DNA of 64,000 nucleotides from Escherichia phage vB_EcoM-Sa45lw, in the sequence record MK977694.1; one strand, written 5' to 3'. The position numbers and the translations under genes were made by a program. Positions 674 to 59,880 of this stretch are shown piece after piece; within the stretch, counting starts at the first letter, position 1; every line of letters begins with the position of its first letter. The notes beneath the pieces are model-generated. The model searched no databases. It had not been told where the DNA came from and saw nothing but the letters and a program-made list of their open reading frames with translations.

Positions 674-755
674 TCCAAAAAGACTACCGCAAGAGCTGCA
701 GCCAACGCTACAGCAAAAATTAAAAATGACTCAGGAAGAGAATATTTGACTTTAT

Positions 756-1148
756 TTAGTTTTGGCTTTTGCATCGTGATTCCTTAACAAATTTCATAAT
801 TTCATCAAATTCATGCGCAGCAAGTTTAAGCTGATGTTCCTTTTTAATCTTTTTACACTGAGCTTTCCAATCACGTACACGTTTACGATAGTGTCTTCCT
901 TGATACCAATATCCTATCCAATTTATAGGTACTAATAAAAGCGGAACTACCAACGGAAGAATTAGTGTTGCTCCAAATATTGCACCAGATTCAATATCAG
1001 TCATAACGTCTATAACCATTCCAGCAATCACCAGAATCACAAATGATACAACTACCACAGGACCTATTAACACATCAGTAGAAATTATCTGACGCTTTAA
1101 TTCATACTTCAACGGTTTACTTGGAAGGTATAGTGATGGTTTTGACAT
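756..1148 (-). CDS. hypothetical membrane protein (about 130 aa, two predicted TM helices)
   Basis: Track ORF 756..1169 starts at TTG; first ATG at 1148-1146 (MSKPSLYL) with AAGGAA upstream; hydrophobic stretches VVVVSFVILVIAGMVIDV and ILPLVVPLLLVPINWIGYW. Confidence 0.5.
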   Translation of the reverse strand: MSKPSLYLPSKPLKYELKRQIISTDVLIGPVVVVSFVILVIAGMVIDVMTDIESGAIFGATLILPLVVPLLLVPINWIGYWYQGRHYRKRVRDWKAQCKKIKKEHQLKLAAHEFDEIMKFVKESRCKSQN

Positions 1149-1722
1149 ATTCTCTACATTCCTTAACAAATTTTTCTAATAATAAATCGCTTTCAAAATT
1201 GGGATTTTCTACGAATTTATCAAAAAGATCATCGACAATAGTTAAGATATTCTTTTTACTAAGAATACGTTTATTTTCATGCTTCGTTTCAGAATCAACT
1301 ATAAGAGTAAAGAAATATTTCTTGCCCTGAAATTTTACAGTAGTATCAATATAGAATAAATTTGACTTTTGTAAATTACGTTTAAACCATGCATCACTTA
1401 AACTATAAACGCCAAGATAATCATAATCGTCGTTTAAATAACAGACCGTCCATTCAGGAGAAACAAAATCAGTAAATTCAACGTCAAAATCGCATGTTAA
1501 TAAATGAATTGATTCAATACTGTTAATAAGTATTCCAGGACGTATTAAAGACTTTTTACCTTTATAAAATCCAGAAAGACTTTCATCAGTTTCATATGAA
1601 GAACCCCAATAATAATTACGTCCTTCTGCCATACGTTTAAGAGCATTTAATAATTGGTCTGGAACATCAACCTGTCTTTGGAACTCTTCAAACATTGAAT
1701 TGAAATCACTTTGCATTTTCAT
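1117..1722 (-). CDS. hypothetical protein (201 aa)
   Basis: ATG at 1722-1720; coding compaction with neighbours; no recognisable motif. Confidence 0.55.
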   Translation of the reverse strand: MKMQSDFNSMFEEFQRQVDVPDQLLNALKRMAEGRNYYWGSSYETDESLSGFYKGKKSLIRPGILINSIESIHLLTCDFDVEFTDFVSPEWTVCYLNDDYDYLGVYSLSDAWFKRNLQKSNLFYIDTTVKFQGKKYFFTLIVDSETKHENKRILSKKNILTIVDDLFDKFVENPNFESDLLLEKFVKECREYVKTITIPSK

Positions 1723-1763
1723 TCCTACTTACTCCAAGTAATAGGGGCCGAAGCCCCTTATCA

Positions 1764-2357
1764 TTATTTCAGAGAATTAATATATTCCTGAACATCGGCA
1801 GAGGTAGTTTCAACCCCAGAAATATTACCATTAAAGGTTTCAACTCGAGCAAGAGTATCTTCAATATCAACCTTAGTCAGTGCTGCAATTTCAACTACAT
1901 CATCAGCAGTACTAATTCCAAGGGCATTCGCGGCGCGAGTTTCACGGATATATTCCAATTTAACTGCAAGTTCTTGGCGAGCATCATCTAACTCAACTAC
2001 TTTCTTGGCGATTTCAATTCGCATTTCAGCATAACCATCAGCTTTAGTAGTCAACTGCTCAGCTGTTCGACGATATAGTAAACCAAGTTTAGCATGCATT
2101 GTTACATCTTGACCTTCCGAAAGGAGCTTGCGAATTTCACGCTCTTTTGATTCGGCCTGCTTATTCTTTTCAACAATAAGTTCACGAATACGCTTTTCTT
2201 CATTAATAGATTTAACAGAAGCAGTTTTTAGATCTTTAATTTTATCAAGCAATTTTGCTGCTGCGGCAGTATACTGCTCTTCAACAGATAGATTTTTAGC
2301 CATAGCAGAACCAAGTTTAGTGCGAATAAACTCAACAATTTTCTTCAGTGTGTTCAT
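1764..2357 (-). CDS. hypothetical coiled-coil protein (197 aa)
   Basis: ATG at 2357-2355 with AAGGAAA RBS; long heptad-like charged/alanine-rich sequence; hairpin immediately downstream (1744-1757). Confidence 0.55.
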
Positions 2358-2400
2358 AGTATTTCCTTAGGTTGATTAGAAATTAAAATCTGCAGAAGAA

Positions 2401-2919
2401 TTATATCATGCTACTTAAGAGATGTAAACTATTTTTAATTTTACAAATTCGTTCAGCTTCTTCAACAGCGGCAGTGATAATGCTTTTAGCTATAGGAGTA
2501 CTAATACTAGTAGCTTTTACACTTAACACGATTTCTTTATCTTTACCAGGCCAACCCCACGATTTTTCACCATGGGTGCCTTTAATTACAGCAGACACCT
2601 CAAGTGAGCATCCATTATCGCATGTTTTTACATTAACAACCCAAGTGTCACTTTTCTCAACCGGTTTATCCCAGTAAATATTAAGAATACGTGGAACATC
2701 AAATTTAGCAGGGCAAATCTTAACCGTAAGACCTTCGCTTTCTAGCCAATTAATAAGAGGGCGTTCATACATGCGGCGATGTGGGCTTTGAACTCGACAA
2801 GCTTTGTACCCATTGCTTGCGGCTTCACTAAGCTCTTCTAATACCTGCTTTTGCATTATTGATAAGATACCATCAAAAGATTTTTCGGAAGTTTCATTCA
2901 GTTCGGTATAAAGAGACAT
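2401..2919 (-). CDS. hypothetical protein (172 aa)
   Basis: Track ORF starts at TTG; ATG at 2919-2917 (MSLYTEL) preceded by GAGGAAAA RBS. Confidence 0.55.
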   Translation of the reverse strand: MSLYTELNETSEKSFDGILSIMQKQVLEELSEAASNGYKACRVQSPHRRMYERPLINWLESEGLTVKICPAKFDVPRILNIYWDKPVEKSDTWVVNVKTCDNGCSLEVSAVIKGTHGEKSWGWPGKDKEIVLSVKATSISTPIAKSIITAAVEEAERICKIKNSLHLLSSMI

Positions 2920-2975
2920 AACAGTTTTCCTCAAATTATAGGCTCATAATATCTCAATCATGAGCCTATATAAAC

Positions 2976-3239
2976 TTATTTCATATTATTGAAATATTCT
3001 TCTGCGATTTCGTCGTTATCATGGTAAACTTTAGAAGACAGTTTAACATAACCTTCAGCAGTGAACATGTTAATCACAACCTTTACAGTATACCACTGAC
3101 CATCTTCATTACCCATTACTGCATAGGTTTCAAACATCGGATGATCAGGACCGATAACTTTAATATCATTCACCGTACGACCGAAATCTTCTGAAACACA
3201 TTTCATAAAGAAGTTGAACAGTTCACCGTAATTATCCAT
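2976..3239 (-). CDS. hypothetical protein (87 aa)
   Basis: ATG at 3239-3237 (MDNYGELF) with GGAG RBS; early-type promoter repeat upstream at 3283-3312. Confidence 0.5.
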   Translation of the reverse strand: MDNYGELFNFFMKCVSEDFGRTVNDIKVIGPDHPMFETYAVMGNEDGQWYTVKVVINMFTAEGYVKLSSKVYHDNDEIAEEYFNNMK

Positions 3240-3282
3240 TTCATTCTCCAAGTTGTTTTCTGTATCAGTAGTTGATAGTTGT

Positions 3283-3312
3283 ATAGTACCATAGAAGAAC
3301 AGGGATGTAAAC
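3283..3312 (-). promoter_or_regulatory. sigma70-type T4-early-like promoter, repeat copy 1
   Basis: Minus strand reads GTTTAC (plus 3307-3312), 18 nt spacer, TGgTACTAT extended -10 (plus 3283-3288); A/T-rich upstream element; near-identical copies at 7223-7252 and 7554-7583. Confidence 0.5.
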
Positions 3313-3421
3313 AGTTTTGTGAAAAATTTTTAAAAAGTTTTGGGGAATTCTAGGGCAGGGAGGGGAAATCAAAGGATAGGATAATATATTATAAAGGGTA
3401 GAAACTAAATGATGTCTAGAG

Positions 3422-3437
3422 AGGCCTGGAAAGGCCT
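3422..3437 (-). other. palindromic hairpin AGGCCT-GGAA-AGGCCT
   Basis: Perfect 6 bp inverted repeat with tetraloop, downstream of the 3480..3953 gene. Confidence 0.35.
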
Positions 3438-3448
3438 AGATACCAAAA

Positions 3449-3474
3449 AGCCCCAACCTTTCGGCTAGGGCTAA
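3449..3474 (-). terminator. rho-independent terminator (minus strand)
   Basis: Minus strand: GCCCTAGCC-GAAA-GGTTGGGGC stem-loop followed by TTTTTGG, directly after the stop of 3480..3953. Confidence 0.6.
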
Positions 3475-3479
3475 GAATG

Positions 3480-3953
3480 TTATTTGATTTGTTTAGCAGA
3501 CCAAATGCGGTCTTTAATAATTTTTTGGATATCTTCAACATACTCAAGAGAGTGAGCATGTGGGTTATCTTTGAAACTATAAGCACGAGCTAGTTTTTGG
3601 CCTTCAGTTTTGATTACTAAAAGCTCTTTAAGGATAGCTTCATATTTGGAGATAATTCCTTTAACAATATTTTTCTCTTGTGCGACTTTAGGATCTGCTT
3701 TAGGAGCAGGTTTACCCGAAGCCTTTGCAAAAGCAGCGCCAGTAGCAACTAAACTTTTCCAGGCCATACTAACTGCATTTCCCGTAAATCCTTCCGCTTT
3801 CATGTCGCGTGCGAACTGGAATCGTGATTCATCAGAAGCATCTTTGTAAGAATATTTACCCGCTGCAATGGCTGCTTTTGCGACAGCTTGAATTTCGGTG
3901 CTAGATGCTTCATTTAACACCGCTTCATTTAAAAATTGAGTATATGATTTCAT
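3480..3953 (-). CDS. internal head protein-like (IPII/IPIII position), 157 aa, capsid-targeting N-terminus
   Basis: N-terminus MKSYTQFLNE|A resembles the T4 IP capsid-targeting sequence (MKTYQEFIAE|A) with an L-x-E prohead-protease site; TATAAATA late promoter upstream on minus strand; Ala/Lys-rich. Confidence 0.6.
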   Translation of the reverse strand: MKSYTQFLNEAVLNEASSTEIQAVAKAAIAAGKYSYKDASDESRFQFARDMKAEGFTGNAVSMAWKSLVATGAAFAKASGKPAPKADPKVAQEKNIVKGIISKYEAILKELLVIKTEGQKLARAYSFKDNPHAHSLEYVEDIQKIIKDRIWSAKQIK

Positions 3954-3993
3954 CTTATTTCCTGTTTTAATTCGTGGATTTAATATACTACTA

Positions 3994-4001
3994 TATTTAT
4001 A
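3994..4001 (-). promoter_or_regulatory. T4 late promoter TATAAATA (minus strand)
   Basis: Exact TATAAATA on minus strand about 40 nt upstream of the IP-like gene start. Confidence 0.55.
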
Positions 4002-4007
4002 CCAAAA

Positions 4008-4031
4008 AGCCCCAACCTTTCGGTCGGGGCT
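4008..4031 (-). terminator. rho-independent terminator (minus strand)
   Basis: Minus strand: AGCCCCGACC-GAAA-GGTTGGGGCT followed by TTTTTGG; nearly identical to the hairpin at 3449-3474. Confidence 0.6.
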
Positions 4032-4032
4032 A

Positions 4033-4340
4033 AGCCTTGCGGCAACCTTGTCGGGGTTCCACCTGCTAAGGCAAGTGTTTGTACGAAACGCCGGGATTCG
4101 AACCCGGTTATTAAGCAGTTGACGCTACTCAATATTTTTAAAAGGCCATATCTCGACCATATCCGAACGTTCCGTCAAAAACGCTACTCGGCTTACGGCA
4201 AAGATATTTCCTCGAATCGATAATTCGGTGCGCCGTTTCTGCTGTGATGTAAGAGGGCATCAATAAACGCAAAGATTATTAACGCAATTCCTTACTCAGG
4301 GAACATCAGTCCGACGACTTACCGGTAGCGACCCGGTTTC
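4033..4340 (-). ncRNA. candidate stable structured RNA region (no convincing ORF), with tRNA-like T-arm
   Basis: About 300 nt, GC-richer than flanking coding DNA, between a good-RBS gene and a terminator; contains CCGGGTTCGAATCCCGG (plus 4091-4107) and palindromes GAACGTTC and CGAAT..ATTCG; no acceptor or anticodon arm found. Confidence 0.3.
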
Positions 4341-4691
4341 TTAATATTCTTTTAAAGCATCAATCTGTTTACGGCGTTCACGCCATAAATCAATTGCTTC
4401 ATACGCGGATTCAACATTTCGAATTGGACGGCATTTATATAAAGATTTGTGATTTTGATATTGCGTAGATAACGGAATTTTATCTAAAAGGTCTTTACGT
4501 TCAAAGTATTCGTAACCATCTAAGCCAAATGAACGATTTTTGAGAAATTGCCAATGACCAAATTCGTTTTGAATATAAATATAATCCGCATGTTGATAAA
4601 GTAAATTAATTTCACGAAATGAGATATGTTTTTCATATTCATTGAAGTAAAATGTTAAATCATGAACTACTAAATAAACATTACCTTTCAT
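4341..4691 (-). CDS. hypothetical protein (116 aa)
   Basis: ATG at 4691-4689 with GAGGAAAAT RBS, immediately downstream of tRNA-Arg. Confidence 0.5.
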   Translation of the reverse strand: MKGNVYLVVHDLTFYFNEYEKHISFREINLLYQHADYIYIQNEFGHWQFLKNRSFGLDGYEYFERKDLLDKIPLSTQYQNHKSLYKCRPIRNVESAYEAIDLWRERRKQIDALKEY

Positions 4692-4709
4692 ATTTTCCTC
4701 ACTTATAAT

Positions 4710-4785
4710 TGGTCGAGGCAGTAGGGATCGAACCTACGACCTAGGACTTAGAAGGTCCTTGCTCTTCCTTCTGAGCTATGCCCCG
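4710..4785 (-). tRNA. tRNA-Arg (anticodon UCU)
   Basis: Hand-folded cloverleaf; anticodon loop CU-UCU-AA; T-loop GGTTCGATCC; CCA encoded. Confidence 0.75.
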
Positions 4786-4789
4786 TAAT

Positions 4790-4865
4790 TGGGGTGACCG
4801 ATGGGAGTCGAACCCATGACTACGAGAATCACAATCTCGAGTTCTACCAACTGAACTACGGCCAC
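4790..4865 (-). tRNA. tRNA-His (anticodon GUG)
   Basis: Anticodon loop UU-GUG-AU, C73 discriminator, T-arm ATGGG-TTCGACT-CCCAT, CCA encoded; no G at -1 in the gene. Confidence 0.65.
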
Positions 4866-4979
4866 ATTAATACCTACTCCAACAATCAAGATGTCTTCAC
4901 ACGAAATTAAGAGAAGAGTGATCAGTTCAACCCCTATAATCGCGTCAAGTAGATATTAATGTGACAGTTGTCACAAATT

Positions 4980-5054
4980 TGGCGGACGTGATAGGATTCG
5001 AACCTATAACCAATCGCTTAACAGGCGATCGCTCTGCCATTGAGCTACACATCC
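4980..5054 (-). tRNA. tRNA-Asn (anticodon GUU)
   Basis: Acceptor GGATGTG/CACGTCC, D-arm GCTC..GAGC, anticodon loop CU-GUU-AA, T-loop TTCGAAT, CCA encoded. Confidence 0.75.
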
Positions 5055-5058
5055 AAAT

Positions 5059-5145
5059 TGGTGGGGAGTGATGGAGTCGAACCACCCGAGTCGCAATGAC
5101 AATGAATTTACAGTCCACACCGCTACCTCTACGGGATAACTCCCC
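5059..5145 (-). tRNA. type II tRNA, probably tRNA-Tyr (anticodon GUA)
   Basis: 87 nt with long variable arm; acceptor GGGGAGT/ACTCCCC; loop CU-GUA-AA; GACTGTAAAT..GTCAT..CGACT resembles bacterial tRNA-Tyr; D-arm not cleanly resolved by hand. Confidence 0.5.
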
Positions 5146-5157
5146 TAATTCATAATT

Positions 5158-5232
5158 TGGTGGCCCTGGGTGGAATTGAACCACCATCTGGCGATTATGA
5201 GTCGCTTGCTTGAACCTTCCAGCTACAGGGCC
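5158..5232 (-). tRNA. tRNA with CAU anticodon (T4 tRNA-Ile type via lysidine, or Met)
   Basis: Acceptor GGCCCTG/CAGGGCC; anticodon loop CU-CAU-AA; T-loop TTCAATT; CCA encoded; identity Ile versus Met cannot be decided from sequence. Confidence 0.65.
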
Positions 5233-5233
5233 T

Positions 5234-5309
5234 TGGTGCTGATTGACGGAATCGAACCGCCGACCTTCTCATTACAAGTGAGTTGCTCTACCTACTGAGC
5301 TAAATCAGC
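5234..5309 (-). tRNA. tRNA-Thr (anticodon UGU)
   Basis: Acceptor GCTGATT/AATCAGC; anticodon loop CU-UGU-AA; T-loop TTCGATT; CCA encoded. Confidence 0.8.
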
Positions 5310-5314
5310 AAAAC

Positions 5315-5404
5315 TGGCGGAGGTGATAGGATTCGAACCTATGAATCGCCGGAGCGACTGCCGGTTTTCAAGACCGGTGCATTCAACCACTCTGCCACAC
5401 CTCC
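5315..5404 (-). tRNA. tRNA-Ser (anticodon UGA), type II
   Basis: 90 nt; GGAGGTG TG GCAGAGTGGTTGAATGC start; loop CU-UGA-AA; long variable arm; CCA encoded. Confidence 0.8.
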
Positions 5405-5406
5405 AG

Positions 5407-5480
5407 TCTCCATACAAGGATTTGAACCTTGGACCTCCTGATCCCAAATCAGGCGCTCTACCAAACTGAGCTACACGGAG
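5407..5480 (-). tRNA. tRNA-Pro (anticodon UGG), CCA not encoded
   Basis: Acceptor CTCCGTG/TATGGAG; loop UU-UGG-GA; T-loop TTCAAAT; 3' end abuts tRNA-Ser as in the T4 Pro-Ser dimeric precursor. Confidence 0.8.
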
Positions 5481-5490
5481 TAAATTAAAT

Positions 5491-5564
<74 letters not shown>

Positions 5565-5569
5565 AAATT

Positions 5570-5656
5570 TGGTGCGAGAAGTGGGACTCGAACCCACAAG
5601 GAAATCATTCCGCAGCATTTTAAGTGCTGTGCCTTTACCAATTTGACCATTCTCGC
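5570..5656 (-). tRNA. tRNA-Leu (anticodon UAA), type II
   Basis: GCGAGAATGGTCAAATTGGTAAAGGCACAGCACTTAAAATGCTG...; loop CU-UAA-AA; long variable arm; CCA encoded; matches the T4 tRNA-Leu pattern from memory. Confidence 0.85.
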
Positions 5657-5657
5657 G

Positions 5658-5730
5658 CTGGGAATAAAGGACTCGAACCTTTGCATCCTGGAATCAAAAT
5701 CCAGTGCCTTACCAACTTGGCTAATTCCCA
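5658..5730 (-). tRNA. tRNA-Gln (anticodon UUG), CCA not encoded
   Basis: Acceptor TGGGAAT/ATTCCCA; loop UU-UUG-AU; T-loop TTCGAGT; directly abuts tRNA-Leu as in the T4 Gln-Leu dimeric precursor. Confidence 0.8.
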
Positions 5731-5815
5731 ATTATTAACAAAGGCTCTCAAGCAGAACCCTTGATGATAGAGGGTATTAATCAGTGCGGTATGAGTTAAT
5801 AATAACAAATAATTC

Positions 5816-6331
5816 TTAAAGCAAATTAAACATTTTAACGGTCGGCAAAACAATTTCTTCTTCTATATAAGAGTATTTAACACTCTCAACTACACGCAAG
5901 AAATCATAGTCATAATATTCAGAAGCATGACCAAGAATATCAATAAGGCCTTCAAATATCTTATTACCATTCACAAAGAATAAGTCAAATACACGTTCTT
6001 CATCTTCTTCGGATTTATTACCAAGGTCAACTTCTATATCAAAGACCTTTTTAATGAATTCTGGATAAAGTTGTTCTGAGAACAGTCCTTCAACCAAGTA
6101 TTCATAAATAAAAAGCGATTGCTCGCTGAACAAGCCATTACCACAATAACGTTCAGCTTTAGTACTAGAATGTCTGCTTTTAAACTTCTTTAAAAGATAT
6201 TGGAACTGTAAGATTTCATGCTCTTCTACGCCAAACAGTGTTTTAGTTTTATAGTTGTCACCATCATTTTCCCAGGTAGTGACATCAATTACGTAACCCT
6301 GCGGAATTGTAGTACCTAAACAAATATTCAT
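5816..6331 (-). CDS. hypothetical protein (171 aa)
   Basis: Track ORF starts at GTG; ATG at 6331-6329 (MNICLG); acidic C-terminal half. Confidence 0.5.
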   Translation of the reverse strand: MNICLGTTIPQGYVIDVTTWENDGDNYKTKTLFGVEEHEILQFQYLLKKFKSRHSSTKAERYCGNGLFSEQSLFIYEYLVEGLFSEQLYPEFIKKVFDIEVDLGNKSEEDEERVFDLFFVNGNKIFEGLIDILGHASEYYDYDFLRVVESVKYSYIEEEIVLPTVKMFNLL

Positions 6332-6333
6332 TT

Positions 6334-6624
6334 TCACCACGCTGCATTAATATAAGTATATTTAATACATTCAAGACTTAAAGGATTCTTGAAAATATCA
6401 TATTCAAGAGGACCTTTTTCTGTTTCAATAAAGAAATCAAAATTTACTGTATTAAATTTACGGTCTTCCTTCACTAATTTAACCTGAGAAGATGAACGGT
6501 CAATGTAAACCTTTTCAACTTCAAAACATGTTAAAATGCCATAATCATCAATCAAGGCTTTAGCTGCTTCTTGATCATATTTATATCCATTTTCAATGGA
6601 CGATACTTTAGCATAAAGAATCAT
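6334..6624 (-). CDS. hypothetical protein (96 aa)
   Basis: ATG at 6624-6622; tight spacing with neighbours. Confidence 0.5.
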   Translation of the reverse strand: MILYAKVSSIENGYKYDQEAAKALIDDYGILTCFEVEKVYIDRSSSQVKLVKEDRKFNTVNFDFFIETEKGPLEYDIFKNPLSLECIKYTYINAAW

Positions 6625-6626
6625 TA

Positions 6627-7007
6627 TTACCCTTCATCAACAATAGTATGAGTGTGGGCATTTACAATTTGCCACCAATCAAAGCGATTAGAACCATACA
6701 TTGGTTTGTTCTCATTTTCTTTGATAATGTCACGGAGTTCATCTTCGGTAGCGGCTTTCGCGATTAAATCAGCATATCCACCGCGAGGATAATAATTATC
6801 ACCTGCAAAAAGTAAAAAGTTTGGTTTAATGTTATTGAACTCTTCAAGAGTAATAACTGTTCCACCAGGTTGAACAATATCTACATAACTATATCCTAAT
6901 TTTTGAGCAGCATCTACTGCTTCAAGCAAGGTATCATGAGCCCATCCAATTTGGCAATCTGGCTTTTCAGATGGATTAGCCTGATAATCTGCATATACTT
7001 TATACAT
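6627..7007 (-). CDS. hypothetical protein (126 aa)
   Basis: Track start is TTG; ATG at 7007-7005 (MYKVYADY) with GGTGAG RBS. Confidence 0.5.
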   Translation of the reverse strand: MYKVYADYQANPSEKPDCQIGWAHDTLLEAVDAAQKLGYSYVDIVQPGGTVITLEEFNNIKPNFLLFAGDNYYPRGGYADLIAKAATEDELRDIIKENENKPMYGSNRFDWWQIVNAHTHTIVDEG

Positions 7008-7008
7008 T

Positions 7009-7194
7009 TTACTCACCTTTAGAAATTTTATCCATAACGATAGCAATTAAACCAATTAAAAATGCTACTACAAGTGAAAATACATTTTCTGCTGTAGTTA
7101 ATAATCCGCATATAAATCCAACAAACATTGAAAAACTAAAAGCGGAAGCAGAAATTGCAATAGCAACATTTCGAATTAATTCACAGCGTTTCAT
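7009..7194 (-). CDS. small hydrophobic membrane protein (61 aa)
   Basis: ATG at 7194-7192 (MKRCELIRN) with GAGGAG RBS; single long hydrophobic segment; promoter repeat copy 2 immediately upstream. Confidence 0.45.
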   Translation of the reverse strand: MKRCELIRNVAIAISASAFSFSMFVGFICGLLTTAENVFSLVVAFLIGLIAIVMDKISKGE

Positions 7195-7222
7195 TTTATT
7201 CTCCTCAGTAGTTGATAGGGTA

Positions 7223-7252
7223 ATAGTATCACTACTAAAACCCCGTGTAAAC
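7223..7252 (-). promoter_or_regulatory. sigma70-type T4-early-like promoter, repeat copy 2
   Basis: Minus strand GTTTAC (plus 7247-7252), 18 nt spacer, TGaTACTAT (plus 7223-7228); shares a 25-30 nt identical block with copies 1 and 3. Confidence 0.5.
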
Positions 7253-7264
7253 AACTTTGTGAAA

Positions 7265-7522
7265 TTATTTTAAATCTTCTAATCGTTTCTTCATCTTAGA
7301 ACCATTTTTAGCGATTTCTCCTGCGTCAGAGCATAATGCTAAAAGTGCTTTAACTTTAGTTTGGTCTCCTTTAAAAGACGAAGGATCGACTGCAGCAGCA
7401 AGTTCTTTAATACGAGAGAAAAGACGCTCAGCTTCAGCTAAAGCCATTCCAAGCTTTACTTCCATACCATGAGAAGATTCAGTGATAATAGTTTCTGTAG
7501 CAAACTCTTTATAAGTTTTCAT
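7265..7522 (-). CDS. internal head protein-like (ipI position, adjacent to 57B), 85 aa, capsid-targeting N-terminus
   Basis: N-terminus MKTYKEFATE resembles the T4 IP capsid-targeting sequence; lies where T4 has ipI but the mature part does not resemble what I recall of T4 IPI; AGGAAAA RBS. Confidence 0.6.
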   Translation of the reverse strand: MKTYKEFATETIITESSHGMEVKLGMALAEAERLFSRIKELAAAVDPSSFKGDQTKVKALLALCSDAGEIAKNGSKMKKRLEDLK

Positions 7523-7543
7523 TTTATTTTTCCTAATTAATTT

Positions 7544-7583
7544 TGATGAGGTAATAGTATCACTACCTCATCAGTGTGTAAAC
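7544..7583 (-). promoter_or_regulatory. terminator hairpin overlapping promoter repeat copy 3
   Basis: Inverted repeat TGATGAGGTA..TACCTCATCA (7544-7573) followed on minus strand by AAAATTAATT; -10 TGaTACTAT lies in the hairpin loop, GTTTAC at plus 7578-7583. Confidence 0.5.
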
Positions 7584-7595
7584 AACTTTGTGAAA

Positions 7596-8292
<697 letters not shown>

Positions 8293-8293
<1 letters not shown>

Positions 8294-9018
8294 TATAGTA
8301 CCTTTAGTGTATTTTTAATTTTAGAAAAAAGTTCTTCAAGAGAACCATCGTTTGTAATTACTAAATCACCATCACGAATTGGCAATCCAGCTTCTGTAAT
8401 ATGTGTATCATTGGATTTTTGACCAGGACGAACTACATGAATTACTGTAGCACCCATCGCCCTAGCCGCATCCATTTCATGATCTTGACGAGTATCAGGA
8501 ACGATATAATAATCATAACCTGAGTTAAATTTATCAAGATAATCTAAAGCAAATAATTTTACCCAGTACATGCGGTCGAAGTTATTAACAATCAAATCCG
8601 TACCTAGGGCTTGCATCAGACGACGGACTGACCATTGATCTTCAATATTATTTATAACGTCAATAATCTTGTTAAATGCTACGGAATTAACTGATTCTTC
8701 TCCTTCGTCATCAAAAACAAACACACCTTTAATTGGGCTTTTACCATTAAGATAGCAAAATGCTTGTTCCATAATCGCGATTACTTCTGATTTAGTCAGA
8801 TTTAAATTAGTCTCACGATCATAGTCAATTCCTTCAAACTCTTTACGAGTTAAGCAAGGATAGTCAGTGTTTGCTGCAAATACTCCCCATGCATAAGCCA
8901 ATGCATCCTTAATAGGACCAGCAAGTTGGTATTTAACTGCAGAATAATTGCTCATGATAAAATCAGCAGTAGTATCTTTTCCACTACGCTTTACACCGCT
9001 TAAAAAGATTAGTTTCAT
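8293..9018 (-). CDS. 1: deoxynucleoside monophosphate kinase (gp1), 241 aa
   Basis: ATG at 9018-9016 (MKLIFLSGVKRSGKDT, P-loop) with GAGGAG RBS; 241 aa as in T4 gp1; the track ORF extends 13 codons further upstream. Confidence 0.85.
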
Positions 9019-55106: not shown

Positions 55107-55140
55107 ATGGGGACCGAAAGGTCCCCATGTTTTTATTTAC
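55107..55140. terminator. rho-independent terminator after gene 54 (possibly bidirectional)
   Basis: ATGGGGACCGAAAGGTCCCCAT hairpin followed by GTTTTTATTT; also sits downstream of the convergent 55133..55423 gene. Confidence 0.7.
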
Positions 55141-55423
55141 GGAATGAAATAAAAGCAGCAACTGAAGCAACAGAGGTTTCTTCAATATAAACCTCAATTT
55201 TTACCGGAGCTTCTGACTCAAATTTACCTGTTACTACACCCTGAAAAATACTTTCAGTCTGTTCTGGCTTTGAAAAATTTTCAGAAGGAAAAATTCCAAA
55301 CTTTTTATCGGTTCCGAAAATTTTAATAAATTCATCGTAAACTGCTTCATTAAAAGCATTATCAGCAGGAATAACGCCTTCAACTACAAGTTCTTGACCT
55401 AAAAAGCGCAAAGAAGATTTCAT
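55133..55423 (-). CDS. hypothetical protein (96 aa), downstream of the Alt paralogs
   Basis: ATG at 55423-55421 with GAGGAACA RBS. Confidence 0.55.
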   Translation of the reverse strand: MKSSLRFLGQELVVEGVIPADNAFNEAVYDEFIKIFGTDKKFGIFPSENFSKPEQTESIFQGVVTGKFESEAPVKIEVYIEETSVASVAAFISFRK

Positions 55424-55483
55424 TTTGTGTTCCTCATGTTATGTCAGTAAGACTACTATAACACAACACGAGGGACTTGTAAA

Positions 55484-57541
55484 CTACATTTTGAACTTTT
55501 TAGACATTCCGTTAATGTTAACCAAAGAAGCTAAGATTTGAGAAACTTCGTTTTCCTCTTCTTTTGATTCTTCTACAAGGAATTGATTAAATCCAGCCAT
55601 TGGACGAACTTCACCAGTTTCCATTAGATGGTCGCCATCATATACTGATTCTTCTAATTGTTCAGAAGGAGGAACGATTGTACCTTCGATTAGATACTTG
55701 TTATAAGCAGTTTCTTTCATAAAGTAAGTACTTACTTTATTAATCTTCAGTAAAATTCCACGTGGTAGAATAACTTCAGCTTCTGATGGAAATCCTGATA
55801 AATGACCCGGAACGATAACTTTAACTCGTTCAGCTCCTTTAATTACCATACCCACGCTAGTTTCAGCATCTTCATTAGCATATGTAGAATGACTACCCAT
55901 ATGCATCAAATCTTCTGCATCAACGGAACCTTCTCCTTCACCAGAAAATACTGCTCCGGAATCATCTAAGGCCATATAATTTTTACCATACTCACCAAAG
56001 ATATTTGGTTTAAGTGATGTAGATACGAAGTTCTTGAAATAGAACATTTTATTTTCAATGTTATGACGCAAAGTTTTAAAAGTAACTTCTTGTCCACGGT
56101 AAAGTGTAGTTCCTGGAGGAAGAACTGAACCTTTAGCAAACGCAGAATCCATAGTCTCGATGTGCTTAATAGCGCGCTCCATGTATTCTTCACGTGTAGA
56201 ATCAGGTTTACCTAAAAGGAATGAGTTCATTTCAACATACGAATCTGCACAATAATCTTCAATTACATCAGATTCAGCCTGAGTCAATCCTTTTGGAGTT
56301 ACTTCAGTGCTTGCATATTCATACGCCTGAGCAGCGGATTCATCAATTAATTTATAAATGCCATTCATGACAAATTGAATAATAGCTGTCTTTTCATCTG
56401 GCGTAGCTTTAGAACCTTTAACTAAATCATTGACAATTTTCTTAATAACATCAAAGCTATTAGAAATATTAATGTCAGCAAGATCGCTTAAAATTTTATC
56501 AGTTTTATAATCAAAGAATTCTTTATTCTTTAAATATTCTTGAGAACCTTGATATGTTATATCGCTCTGCAGCTTGATAGATGGATCACGTAAACGTGCA
56601 TGGGCTAATGCAATATGATTTCGGAAGCTTTCTAGTTCATAATCACTAGATTTAAAACGAGAAGCACTCCTCATACCACCGATAGCTCCTTTGCCGAAGT
56701 TTGAACCAATCTGAATAACGCCAGAGTTCATTGGTCCTTCTGCTTTATATACCGGAACTTTAGATTCAAACTCTTGATATTTCTTAGCAGCAAAGCTATC
56801 ACCCTGAAGTGAAGCATCAACAGTAGAATATTGAGCTTGTGCTGCTAATCGACGACTAATTTTAGTTTTCTGAATAACAGCTTGATCCGTACGCTTATCA
56901 TTTTCTAAAGCAATAGAAGCAGCAACTGCGACAGCTTTAGGAACAGCATTACCTGTTTTAACGTCTACATAAACATCACCGACTTTCGATTCAACTTTTG
57001 TGAATAACTCAGTTGAAATAGGAGGTACACCTGGAATGTCTTCTAAATTGGCATTTTTACGGTAAACCATAATATATGCATATTTCTTATCATAGTCCCA
57101 GATTTCCTTTAAAAGAACATATCGACCTGCTCCTTTAGTACGTACTAAACGGTCAGCAATAACTTGCATTTGACGAGCAGCGCCATTTGTTTTACTTTTT
57201 AGTACGCGGAATAGGCATGCATCAATTTTATACTGTTTCATTGTTTGAAGAGCAGTATCAAAAACCGCATTAATGACACCAATTGGATTTCCACCCAAGT
57301 TTTTAAGCTTAACTAACGATAATTTCTCATTAACACCTATCATTACGATATGCATCATTTTGTCGCCTGGCTTAACGTTTTTATTCGTATCACCGCCAGA
57401 GGTGTATGTACAAAATCGAAATCCAGGAAGAACGCTTTCTTCACCGGCTTGAATAGCAAAAATTTGAGGTATTTTATGCTTAGGATTTAAGTTAACAACC
57501 GGCGCCGAAGCGCCGTCAAATAATTCTGTAATAAGTTCCAT
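55484..57541 (-). CDS. Alt-family ADP-ribosyltransferase paralog A (685 aa)
   Basis: N-terminus MELITELFD...NLNPK.KIPQIF shared with the adjacent paralog; C-terminal ART motifs present (LYRGQ, FVSTS, EAEVILPRG); AAGGATAAATC RBS 3 nt after the upstream stop. Confidence 0.8.
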   Translation of the reverse strand: MELITELFDGASAPVVNLNPKHKIPQIFAIQAGEESVLPGFRFCTYTSGGDTNKNVKPGDKMMHIVMIGVNEKLSLVKLKNLGGNPIGVINAVFDTALQTMKQYKIDACLFRVLKSKTNGAARQMQVIADRLVRTKGAGRYVLLKEIWDYDKKYAYIMVYRKNANLEDIPGVPPISTELFTKVESKVGDVYVDVKTGNAVPKAVAVAASIALENDKRTDQAVIQKTKISRRLAAQAQYSTVDASLQGDSFAAKKYQEFESKVPVYKAEGPMNSGVIQIGSNFGKGAIGGMRSASRFKSSDYELESFRNHIALAHARLRDPSIKLQSDITYQGSQEYLKNKEFFDYKTDKILSDLADINISNSFDVIKKIVNDLVKGSKATPDEKTAIIQFVMNGIYKLIDESAAQAYEYASTEVTPKGLTQAESDVIEDYCADSYVEMNSFLLGKPDSTREEYMERAIKHIETMDSAFAKGSVLPPGTTLYRGQEVTFKTLRHNIENKMFYFKNFVSTSLKPNIFGEYGKNYMALDDSGAVFSGEGEGSVDAEDLMHMGSHSTYANEDAETSVGMVIKGAERVKVIVPGHLSGFPSEAEVILPRGILLKINKVSTYFMKETAYNKYLIEGTIVPPSEQLEESVYDGDHLMETGEVRPMAGFNQFLVEESKEEENEVSQILASLVNINGMSKKFKM

Positions 57542-57544
57542 GAT

Positions 57545-59638
57545 TTATCCTTGAACGAACTTGTAAGGCATGTTTGTAATATCTATGCAAGACGCAATAA
57601 TTCCAAGAGATGATTCTACTTTCTGTTTAATATTTGATGAAACAAATGATGCAAAGTCAACTCTGTCTTCTATTTCAATATCACCTGTCATTGCAACCAA
57701 TTCACCAGTTTCCATTAAATGGTCTCCATCATAGATTACCGATTCGGTGAGCTCTTCCGTGGTCATAACTTCAGCTTGAATGAGTTTTGTATTATTAGAT
57801 GTTGTTCCGTCATTATTAGAAGCATCAGTTATTTTATTAACCTTGACCATCAATCCGCGTGGTAGAATAACTTCAGCTTCTGTTGCTATTCCGAGACTTC
57901 CTGGATATACAACATTAACTTTATGAGCTCCATCAATTGCCCATCCTATTTGAACTTTAACATATTCAGGATTTTCTTTATACGCTCTTATTTCGTTTGG
58001 ATTAATAGTTATTCCTTCTTCATTTTTATCAACTGTTAATTCGTTACGAGCTTCTGGTTCTAAAAGACCAATACCAGCATGTGTGATTCCAAAACGTCCA
58101 AAAATGATAGGAGTTAAAGAAGTAGATACAAAATTTCTGAAGTAGAACACTTTATTTTTAACTAACGCTTCATATATAGGAGCAGTCATACTTTGAGCAC
58201 GATAAACTGTAATGCCTTCTGGTATACGGTCACCATTTTCAAAAGCTGAATCTAAGTTATTTATAGCAGATTCAATTTCTTTTTCACTCATTACATCGTA
58301 TCGTTCTGGATTGTAACGACCTAAAAGAAGATTATTGATGTCAGTATATCCTGAACCGCAATATTCTCTAATGCCACGCTTTTGTGATGGAGTATATTTA
58401 GAACCATCGCGGGCAATAGTAATATCAATCATTGGACCAGCACCAATTCCAGAAAAACTGTAAATCATTCGTTTGAGGAATTTAGTTTTTGCTGCGTTCC
58501 AGGAATTTTTAGTTATTTCTTCCCAGACTTCATCTGGTTGTCCTTTACGATTTTTATTATGATTAGCAAGCCATTTATCTTTATAATCTTCAAAGAATTG
58601 ATTTACAGCTGCTGCGTATTTCTCTAAACATTTTATTGAAGTAGTTGGTTCATTTTTAATTGCATTAAAAATTACTTCTTTAATTTTTTCTGAAACTTCA
58701 CCGACTTGACTCATTGGAAAGAATTTATAATCATAGTGAAGTTCATCTGCCGTTCCTTCAGCAATAATTTTTGCTGCCTTTGTTTTAGAAGCTAATGAAT
58801 TAATTCCAATTTTCATTTCTTCTGCTTCGGGAATTAAAGGTGCAGTAGCTGGTTTATTAAAATTAGCTGCTGTAGATTCATACTTCTGGAATAATTCACT
58901 TTCAAATCTAGAAGATTCCAATGACTGACTTTGTGCAATTGCTCTACGGGAAATTTTAACTTTAACGATTACGGCTTGGTCAGAACGTTTATCATTTTCT
59001 TGTGCAATAGATGCAGCAATTGCCTCATTTTTGGTTACTTGAGCTCCAGTATCTTTATTGATATAAACATCACCGACCTTCGATTCAACTTTAGTAAAAA
59101 GCTCGGTGCTAATTTCTGGAACTCCTGGAATGTCTTCTAGTGATACATTTTTACGATGTATAAGAATATATGCATACTTTTTATCGTAATCCCAGAGTTC
59201 CTTAAGAAGGACGTATCTGCCACCTGAACGACTGCGGATGAGTCTATCAGCAATAAGTTGAATTTGTCGAGCTTGACCGGCGGTTTTAGACTTAAGAATA
59301 CGAAGCATGCAGGCATCAATTTTATATTGACGCATTGTTTGCATTGCAACAGTAAAAACTGAATTGATATAATTAATCGGGCTTGGACCAAGACCTTTTA
59401 ATTTAGCAATTGAACCTTTAGCAGTTAATGTAAAAGGAACAATGTGCATCATTTTATCGCCCATCTTTAAATCACGATTAGTATCACCTCCAGATGTATA
59501 GGTACATAAACGAAAGCCTGGTTGTTCAATTGCATCATCAACATGAACTGAAAAAATTTGTGGTATTTTCTTCTTTGGATTTAAGTTTGTAATCGGAAGA
59601 GTAGTATCTTCGTCAAATAATTCTGTAATAAGTTCCAT
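57545..59638 (-). CDS. alt: Alt-family ADP-ribosyltransferase paralog B (697 aa), likely the alt ortholog
   Basis: N-terminus MELITELFDEDTTLPITNL; ART motifs VYRAQ, FVSTS, EAEVILPRG; own late promoter upstream, consistent with a packaged head protein. Confidence 0.8.
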   Translation of the reverse strand: MELITELFDEDTTLPITNLNPKKKIPQIFSVHVDDAIEQPGFRLCTYTSGGDTNRDLKMGDKMMHIVPFTLTAKGSIAKLKGLGPSPINYINSVFTVAMQTMRQYKIDACMLRILKSKTAGQARQIQLIADRLIRSRSGGRYVLLKELWDYDKKYAYILIHRKNVSLEDIPGVPEISTELFTKVESKVGDVYINKDTGAQVTKNEAIAASIAQENDKRSDQAVIVKVKISRRAIAQSQSLESSRFESELFQKYESTAANFNKPATAPLIPEAEEMKIGINSLASKTKAAKIIAEGTADELHYDYKFFPMSQVGEVSEKIKEVIFNAIKNEPTTSIKCLEKYAAAVNQFFEDYKDKWLANHNKNRKGQPDEVWEEITKNSWNAAKTKFLKRMIYSFSGIGAGPMIDITIARDGSKYTPSQKRGIREYCGSGYTDINNLLLGRYNPERYDVMSEKEIESAINNLDSAFENGDRIPEGITVYRAQSMTAPIYEALVKNKVFYFRNFVSTSLTPIIFGRFGITHAGIGLLEPEARNELTVDKNEEGITINPNEIRAYKENPEYVKVQIGWAIDGAHKVNVVYPGSLGIATEAEVILPRGLMVKVNKITDASNNDGTTSNNTKLIQAEVMTTEELTESVIYDGDHLMETGELVAMTGDIEIEDRVDFASFVSSNIKQKVESSLGIIASCIDITNMPYKFVQG

Positions 59639-59661: not shown

Positions 59662-59669
59662 TATTTATA
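59662..59669 (-). promoter_or_regulatory. T4 late promoter TATAAATA (minus strand) upstream of Alt paralog B
   Basis: Exact TATAAATA on minus strand about 24 nt upstream of the ATG at 59638. Confidence 0.55.
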
Positions 59670-59674
59670 AAATT

Positions 59675-59692
59675 AAAGGCCCGAAGGCCTTT
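59675..59692 (-). terminator. hairpin AAAGGCC-CGAA-GGCCTTT between the 61 aa ORF and alt
   Basis: Perfect stem flanked by A/T-rich sequence; candidate terminator or processing hairpin. Confidence 0.45.
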
Positions 59693-59694
59693 AA

Positions 59695-59880
59695 TTAATA
59701 GAGAGCTAAAAGAGTACGATATACTTCAAACTTTGGACCTTTTTCATATGGATCAAATCTTTCCGTGAATTCATCATATGCTAGTTTATCTGGGAATTCA
59801 AGAATAACCTGCGATACCGCAGTGGAAACATCTCCACCTTCTTTTTGAGCCACGACAATTGTTTCTAAGTAAGCTTTCAT
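59695..59880 (-). CDS. hypothetical small protein (61 aa)
   Basis: Small ORF between DNA ligase and alt, overlapping the ligase stop. Confidence 0.5.
   Translation of the reverse strand: MKAYLETIVVAQKEGGDVSTAVSQVILEFPDKLAYDEFTERFDPYEKGPKFEVYRTLLALY

Follow-up and report, generated by a model that had tools for sequence, protein, structure and literature searches.

Introduction

The Alt protein of phage T4 ADP-ribosylates Arg265 of the RNA polymerase alpha subunit and other host proteins (PMC2988021); within the Alt family, this activity is established biochemically for T4 Alt only. It belongs to the core of the phage head, each head containing about 40 copies, and enters the host together with the DNA (PMC9026906; PMC2988021). 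Mass spectrometry showed that the protease gp21 cuts T4 Alt after ITE-6 and LTE-619, which removes 63 C-terminal residues and leaves a product of 68.2 kDa (PMC5694885). Quite apart from catalysis, Alt has also been described as important in its role as a core protein (PMC11404850). Duplications of alt, including those of 44RR and RB49, were noted in 2006 (PMC1524935), and a 2026 paper on Tequatrovirus 6phi13 reported two Alt-like paralogues of 43.29% identity and proposed that their targets have diverged (PMC13600099). Here we analyse two tandem Alt-family genes, called A and B below, in a 64,000-nucleotide (nt) stretch of Escherichia phage vB_EcoM-Sa45lw (record MK977694.1; hereafter the window).

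We consider it likely that A and B, the alt.-2 and alt genes of Tequatrovirus, are related enzymes that are probably injected to modify host proteins, the targets of A being different from those of B or overlapping with them in part. The sequence-only reading of the window had described the two genes and had allowed that they might prove to be a standard, already characterised arrangement of T-even reference genomes. Standard it is: the pair is annotated in T2, T6, RB14, RB32, RB51 and hundreds more, and is already known in print, with a matching interpretation. A functional characterisation of A was not among the literature found. As a sequence finding, the pair adds nothing to public annotation and one recent paper; what goes slightly beyond the annotations found is the derivation of T4 alt.-1 and alt.-2 from a full paralogue by a repeat-mediated deletion, and the domain-wise pattern of module conservation.

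The arrangement matters for how Alt is understood. Nearly all Alt biology comes from T4, a minority genotype without the second gene, and A is kept by T2, T6 and about four of every five relatives sequenced. Should A be injected and act on targets of its own, a second enzyme would take part in host takeover within the first seconds of T-even infection.

Two paralogues with intact catalytic residues

The two open reading frames lie next to each other, with the following positions and lengths in amino acids (aa):

55484..57541, minus strand: paralogue A, full-length alt.-2, 685 aa
57545..59638, minus strand: paralogue B, alt, 697-aa allele of the T2/T6/RB14/RB32 type

A and B are tandem Alt-family paralogues, and the catalytic residues are intact in both, as alignment, profile comparison and structure prediction agree. 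PHROG 802 ('Alt-like RNA polymerase ADP-ribosyltransferase') matches the proteins end to end (A, 2.1e-256; B, 1.2e-272), and Pfam PF03496 (ADPrib_exo_Tox) matches their ADP-ribosyltransferase (ART) domains (A, 7.5e-20; B, 9.6e-38); no NCBIfam model matched either protein. They are 41% identical across their full length (BLASTP, E=5e-164), far above chance. By region, identity is 68% in the N-terminal ~235 aa, 10% in the centre and 35% in the ART domain. Comparison of A-type and B-type sequences with hhalign gave a probability of 100% for the N-domain (E 2e-113), 100% for the ART domain and 99.5% for the tail; homology between the centres, looked for in the same way, was not detectable (6.7%). 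The adjacent pair, its common Alt N-terminus and its differing central regions are thus as the sequence-only reading had described them. The centres are helical in the structure models of both proteins, which leaves extreme divergence and replacement indistinguishable as explanations.

Both proteins have one architecture, consisting of a 6-residue N-propeptide, an alpha/beta N-domain of ~230 aa, a helical centre, an R-S-E ART domain and an acidic C-tail. The regions and catalytic sites, all on the minus strand, are:

A, N-domain: residues 1-235 (56837-57541)
A, helical centre: residues 236-415 (56297-56836)
A, Pfam ART domain: residues 416-620 (55682-56296)
A, catalytic arginine: R482 (56096-56098)
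A, STS motif: residues 507-509 (56015-56023)
A, ExE motif: residues 587-589, E587-A-E589 (55775-55783)
B, N-domain: residues 1-236 (58931-59638)
B, helical centre: residues ~237-412
B, Pfam ART domain: residues 378-627 (57758-58507)
B, catalytic arginine: R480 (58199-58201)
B, STS motif: residues 505-507 (58118-58126)
B, ExE motif: residues 587-589, E587-A-E589 (57872-57880)

The claim that both genes keep the R / S-T-S / E-x-E triad holds on proper alignment, neither paralogue lacking a catalytic residue. In two alignments, with 40 and 38 members of the family, the three motif columns do not vary, and their conservation is 90% or higher among 58 diverse representatives with mutual identities of at most about 50%. 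The 'TVYRAQ' and 'EAEVIL' segments of B align onto the catalytic Arg and the ExE motif of Clostridioides difficile CdtA (HMMER), and in both proteins the motifs follow each other within the domain in the order of the R-S-E clade of ADP-ribosyltransferases (PF03496). The model of A has a C3/Vis-like ART fold, and the model of B (predicted local distance difference test, pLDDT, 78.2) has a matching succession of secondary-structure elements. A sequence search of the PDB returned no match for A at E<=0.01 and weak matches of B to CdtA and iota; there was no Alt structure in the PDB copy searched.

The residues directly before the ExE motif are GFPSEAE in A, GIATEAE in B and APSNEME in T4. In C3-like enzymes the loop before ExE helps to determine substrate choice. 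The number of the published inactive mutant Alt E577A (PMC11404850) could not be mapped, as the ExE glutamates are E574 and E576 in the translated alt gene of NC_000866, and was not used here.

Processing sites

Residues 7-619 of translated T4 Alt have a mass of 68.2 kDa, matching the published mature product. In A and B the N-terminal site lies between MELITE and LF, so that the N-propeptide, residues 1-6, would end at ITE-6. The C-terminal site of B falls after LTE-632 and is followed by SVIYDGDHLMETGE, the C-propeptide comprising residues 633-697. At the aligned position, A has LEE-631 followed by SVYDGDHLMETGE, and its predicted C-propeptide comprises residues 632-685. The segment YDGDHLMETGE is conserved past this second site in both proteins. 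As motifs, gp21 processing sites are thus present at both ends of A and of B. The predicted mature products are 69.1 kDa (A; isoelectric point, 6.9) and 70.1 kDa (B; isoelectric point, 8.05), and both C-propeptides are acidic. This amounts to sequence-level support, not proof, for the packaging and processing of A in the manner of Alt.

Conservation of A and the two alleles of alt

A is the gene annotated as alt.-2 in RB14, RB32, RB51 and T6; in many records the RefSeq label for both genes is 'Alt-like RNA polymerase ADP-ribosyltransferase'. T2 and T6 have exactly the 685 + 697 aa arrangement. When at least 80% of the A-specific DNA (55484-56850) is required to be present, 401 phage records qualify, T2 and T6 among them, with identities of 93.6-100%. 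In eight of the eight genomes compared, A is open at 685 aa with its motifs intact, and the pairwise ratio of non-synonymous to synonymous substitution rates (dN/dS) is 0.013-0.064 at dS values of up to 0.25. Purifying selection on this old full-length paralogue is strong, and A is a working gene. A pseudogene reading of A was rejected on the open frames and the low dN/dS in these eight genomes.

B is the positional orthologue of T4 alt, in its 697-aa allele, and its gene is annotated as alt in RB14, RB32, T6 and T2. Identity to T4 Alt is 72% overall, with 99% in the N-domain (first 235 residues), 96% in the C-tail, 33% in the centre and 66% in the ART domain. The alt gene is dimorphic. T2, T6, RB14, RB32 and the window have a 697-aa allele, T4 and W143 one of 682/684 aa, and most of the difference between the two falls in the centre and the ART domain, as seen when 57545-59638 of the window is compared with the T4 (NC_000866) locus 6455-8503 and with a second locus, 5562-7616. 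For B, dN/dS is 0.04-0.09 when alleles of one type are compared and about 0.36-0.42 when the types are compared with each other. Paralogue A is found alongside alleles of either type.

Loss of A in T4 and other relatives

The sequence-only reading had proposed alignment to T4 Alt and its neighbours as a check. B has its orthologue in T4 alt, and the paired arrangement is missing from T4, where alt is accompanied by two remnants of A. The T4 genome has one alt gene and then two small open reading frames, alt.-1 (61 aa) and alt.-2 (67 aa), which the text of the T4 record puts down to an old duplication covering 'the first part of gene alt'. We compared T4 (NC_000866) 6066-6451 with 55484-57541 of the window. 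The two T4 frames align to A, not to B, and are nearly identical to the first ~350 nt (~118 codons) of A, apart from a 1-nt deletion that splits the frame. At a CTAAAAAGT close to codon 117 the T4 sequence then skips ~1.7 kb and resumes at another copy of CTAAAAAGT, located 7 codons before the stop of A. CTAAAAAGT is a 9-bp direct repeat at the deletion junction, and the jump between its copies shifts the frame, which accounts for the odd ending of T4 alt.-2, ...KSSKCSLQVPRVVL. T4 alt.-1 and alt.-2 are the wreck of a whole paralogue, which the note in the T4 record understates.

The T4-type deletion allele is found in many natural isolates, at least 40 records matching it at 100% coverage. At a coverage cut-off of 80% the T4 remnant does not discriminate as a query, since intact A, too, matches 87% of it. 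Full-length A is missing from roughly 100 of 501 records (about one fifth), a figure obtained by no more than subtracting 401 records from 501. Escherichia phage sutha (locus 5001-7204) has one full-length alt followed by a 38-codon open reading frame that corresponds to the 3' end of A; its loss of A is an independent deletion, different from that of T4. A would be dispensable in some settings. It is gone from T4 and from about one in five of the relatives, through a frameshift together with a deletion between the two 9-bp repeats.

Modular evolution of the alt array

Escherichia phage fDHCT2 (locus 683-6943) has three tandem alt paralogues of 707, 681 and 694 aa, called alt_1 to alt_3 here. 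The N-domains group by genome: identity is 68% between A and B of the window and 88% between alt_1 and alt_2 of fDHCT2, and 41-45% between the genomes. The centres and ART domains group by type across the genomes, with identities (centre / ART) of 45% / 59% for A and alt_1 and of 66% / 95% for B and alt_3. The nearest relative of A is alt_1 of fDHCT2, which occupies the matching position beside alt.-3; to judge from these comparisons, type A is older than the genus. The ART domains of B and alt_3 are 95% identical and their N-domains only 45%, a contrast that points to the effector module having been exchanged horizontally between phage lineages in recent times. In alt_2 and in alt_1 of fDHCT2, a single motif escaped the strict motif patterns, which could reflect a variant spelling or a real loss. 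Recent gene conversion between A and B was considered and rejected, since their N-domains share only 53-79% identity at the DNA level and no exact match exceeds 28 nt, the longest lying at the start codon.

The Alt N-domain, which A and B both carry, is confined to the Alt family: it is present in only 69 clusters among 1.84 billion representatives, almost all of them 600-712 aa long. We scanned 58 proteins with this domain and found PF03496 in 56 of them and another Pfam family in none. The idea that the Alt N-domain is a general delivery module, following the logic of polymorphic toxins or polyvalent proteins, was rejected on these counts. What varies is the ART subtype and the centre only, so that A and B do not belong with polyvalent or polymorphic effectors, and Alt has likewise been placed outside the genuine polyvalent proteins (PMC5512222). 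The analogy to polymorphic toxins is valid only within the ART subtypes. Nor do the proteins have the N-terminal duplicated, inactive ART fold of the enzymatic components of binary toxins. In the Acinetobacter phages ZZ1 and Henu6, which appeared among the BFVD matches to the model of A, an Alt homologue labelled 'split RNA polymerase ADP-ribosylase' is encoded by two open reading frames. This split is another sign that the N-terminal and effector parts are separable.

Locus layout and expression signals

The order of genes around A and B is that of the Alt locus in T4, RB14, T6 and T2. Further features of the locus are:

plus strand, genes 29, 48 and 54; then minus strand, alt.-3, A, B, alt.1, gene 30 (DNA ligase) and 30.1
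55133-55423, minus strand: alt.-3, matching DUF5498 (3e-62)
57548..57552, minus strand: AAGGA Shine-Dalgarno sequence for A, inside the last codons of B
59662..59669, minus strand: match to the consensus of T4-type late promoters, TATAAATA, 23 nt before the ATG of B
59675..59692, minus strand: stem-loop AAAGGCC-TTCG-GGCCTTT followed by AATTTT, terminator-like, downstream of alt.1 and directly before the alt late promoter
59695-59880, minus strand: alt.1, matching PF24647 'Phage blade protein' (6.8e-28)

The late promoter that the sequence-only reading had assigned to B is present as a sequence match, and a GAGG Shine-Dalgarno sequence lies between it and the ATG of B. Its placement ahead of alt is consistent with late expression of a head protein. 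Across the window TATAAATA matches 23 times (expected, 10.1 +/- 3.2), and as a promoter the single match before B is only suggestive. A second exact TATAAATA lies inside B (58258-58265, minus strand), ~720 nt upstream of the start of A; it could be a late promoter for A or a chance occurrence.

A begins 3 nt after B ends, as had been read from the sequence (ATG of A at 57541; TAA of B at 57545-57547), and the same 3-nt spacing separates all three alt paralogues of fDHCT2. The short gap and the AAGGA within B suggest co-transcription of the two genes, with independent or coupled translation.

The stem-loop at 59675..59692 has a predicted folding free energy of -14.4 kcal/mol (z -3.6; none of 200 shuffled sequences was equally stable) and is also found 5' of the three-gene array of fDHCT2. 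A conserved terminator upstream of alt has been noted before (PMC1524935).

The genes alt.1 and alt.-3 flank the alt array in every genome examined. A sigma-70-like site (TTTACA, 17-nt spacer, TATAGT, with TG) at 55455-55483 on the minus strand begins directly after the stop of A and 5' of alt.-3, and may be an early-type promoter of alt.-3's own. Between the converging genes 54 (plus strand) and alt.-3 (minus strand), a perfect hairpin with a 9-bp stem, ATGGGGACC-GAAA-GGTCCCCAT, lies at 55107-55128. Its score is terminator-like on either strand, and it probably terminates transcription in both directions.

Proposed mechanism and alternative explanations

Extending what is known of T4 Alt, we propose that A and B are transcribed late as one message from the TATAAATA upstream of B, with A translated from its own Shine-Dalgarno sequence. 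Both proteins would enter the prohead core, and gp21 would trim them at both ends to about 69 kDa (A) and 70 kDa (B). They would then be injected with the DNA and would carry out NAD+-dependent mono-ADP-ribosylation of arginines in host proteins before phage gene expression. B would act like Alt, with Arg265 of the RNA polymerase alpha subunit as its main target and other proteins in addition. The host proteins modified by A would most likely be others than those of B, or coincide with them only in part, because the centre of A is unrelated to that of B, its ART domain is 35% identical to that of B and its loop before ExE is different. Distinct targets for the two enzymes are therefore plausible.

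Several points weigh against this proposal. Arg265 of the alpha subunit is modified by T4 Alt and by ModA alike, despite their dissimilarity (PMC2988021), and this overlap means that a divergent sequence is no proof of divergent targets. The expression, packaging, injection and enzymatic activity of A are all predicted. At its C-terminal site A has LEE, not LTE; this fits the L/I-x-E rule, and cleavage there is a prediction. One match to TATAAATA in an AT-rich genome is weak evidence of a promoter. The searchable literature yielded nothing on A beyond genomic mentions (PMC1524935; PMC13600099), and in particular neither virion proteomics nor enzymology. Finally, the repeated natural loss of A, in the T4-type allele and in sutha, shows that A is not essential and is compatible with redundancy.

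Redundancy is the main rival explanation: A would be packaged and active on the same host proteins as Alt, chiefly on Arg265 of RNA polymerase alpha, and would provide dosage or a back-up. Phages that have lost A remain viable, in the many natural isolates with the T4-type deletion as well as in sutha; the N-domain, the catalytic triad and the processing sites are alike in A and B; and the overlapping specificity of Alt and ModA (PMC2988021) shows how two unlike enzymes can meet on one residue. However, a dN/dS of ~0.04 over about 400 genomes is not expected of a redundant copy, the centres of A and B are not detectably homologous, and the type-specific centre and ART domain are kept across genera (45% / 59% between A and alt_1 of fDHCT2, against 10% / 35% between A and B). 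On balance we regard redundancy as unlikely. We give considerably less credence still to the view that A is not injected, being either a late ART that acts in the producing cell or mainly a structural protein of the head core. The lack of proteomic evidence for A in virions in the literature found would suit this view, as would the importance of Alt as a core protein apart from catalysis (PMC11404850), but A keeps the MELITE N-propeptide, the Alt N-domain (68% identical to that of B) and the L-x-E / YDGDHLMETGE region used in Alt maturation (PMC5694885), and a purely structural role would not demand its invariant catalytic residues. The frameshift and deletion of the same gene in T4 could be taken to mean that A is a functionless duplicate in decay, a pseudogene in waiting. 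Against this stand the 685-aa frame in all eight genomes, the dN/dS of 0.013-0.064 at dS up to 0.25, the full-length specific DNA in 401 records and the intact catalytic and processing motifs, and we see next to no chance that it is correct.

Our preferred reading, two injected enzymes with different or partly overlapping targets, could be taken further. The alt locus might be an array of one to three slots, each combining a genome-specific packaging module with a type-specific and sometimes exchanged effector, and A might act on a target other than RNA polymerase, for example in defence, toxin-antitoxin systems or translation. We put this forward tentatively, as something that may well not hold. 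If it is true, T4 under-represents the normal injected arsenal of its genus.

Comparison with known systems

The toxins of the R-S-E group (PF03496), such as C3, Vis, Certhrax and the iota/CDTa/VIP2 proteins, have the catalytic fold and the R / STS / ExE motifs in common with A and B. They differ in their pseudo-ART adaptor domain and in delivery through a toxin translocon, whereas Alt has an Alt-specific N-domain and a helical centre and is delivered from the phage head.

Among the closest known systems is T4 Alt (gpAlt, NP_049811), a head-packaged, injected NAD+:arginine mono-ADP-ribosyltransferase. B resembles it in promoter context, in the ITE-6 and LTE processing sites and in the R-S-E triad, and differs from it in being the 697-aa and not the 682-aa allele, with 33% identity in the centre and 66% in the ART domain. 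A has the whole architecture in common with T4 Alt at 43% identity, but differs from it more than B does (15% in the centre, 36% in the ART domain), and T4 itself lacks an intact A. The T4 frames alt.-1 and alt.-2 (NP_049810 and NP_049809; PHROGs 23015 and 15247) represent the 5' part of A and differ from it by the 1-nt split and the ~1.7-kb truncation.

The array of fDHCT2 is like that of the window in being a tandem at the same locus, with 3-nt spacing, an upstream hairpin, an alt_1 of the A type and an alt_3 of the B type; it is unlike it in having three copies and a third effector type. The alt.-2 genes of RB14, RB32, RB51 and T6, and their unnamed equivalents in T2, Shfl2, KRT47 and ~400 other Tequatrovirus records, have the size, position and spacing of A and show no meaningful difference from it. 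In the records they are labelled anything from 'hypothetical protein; apparent insertion in alt.-2; similar to alt' to 'Alt-like RNA polymerase ADP-ribosyltransferase'.

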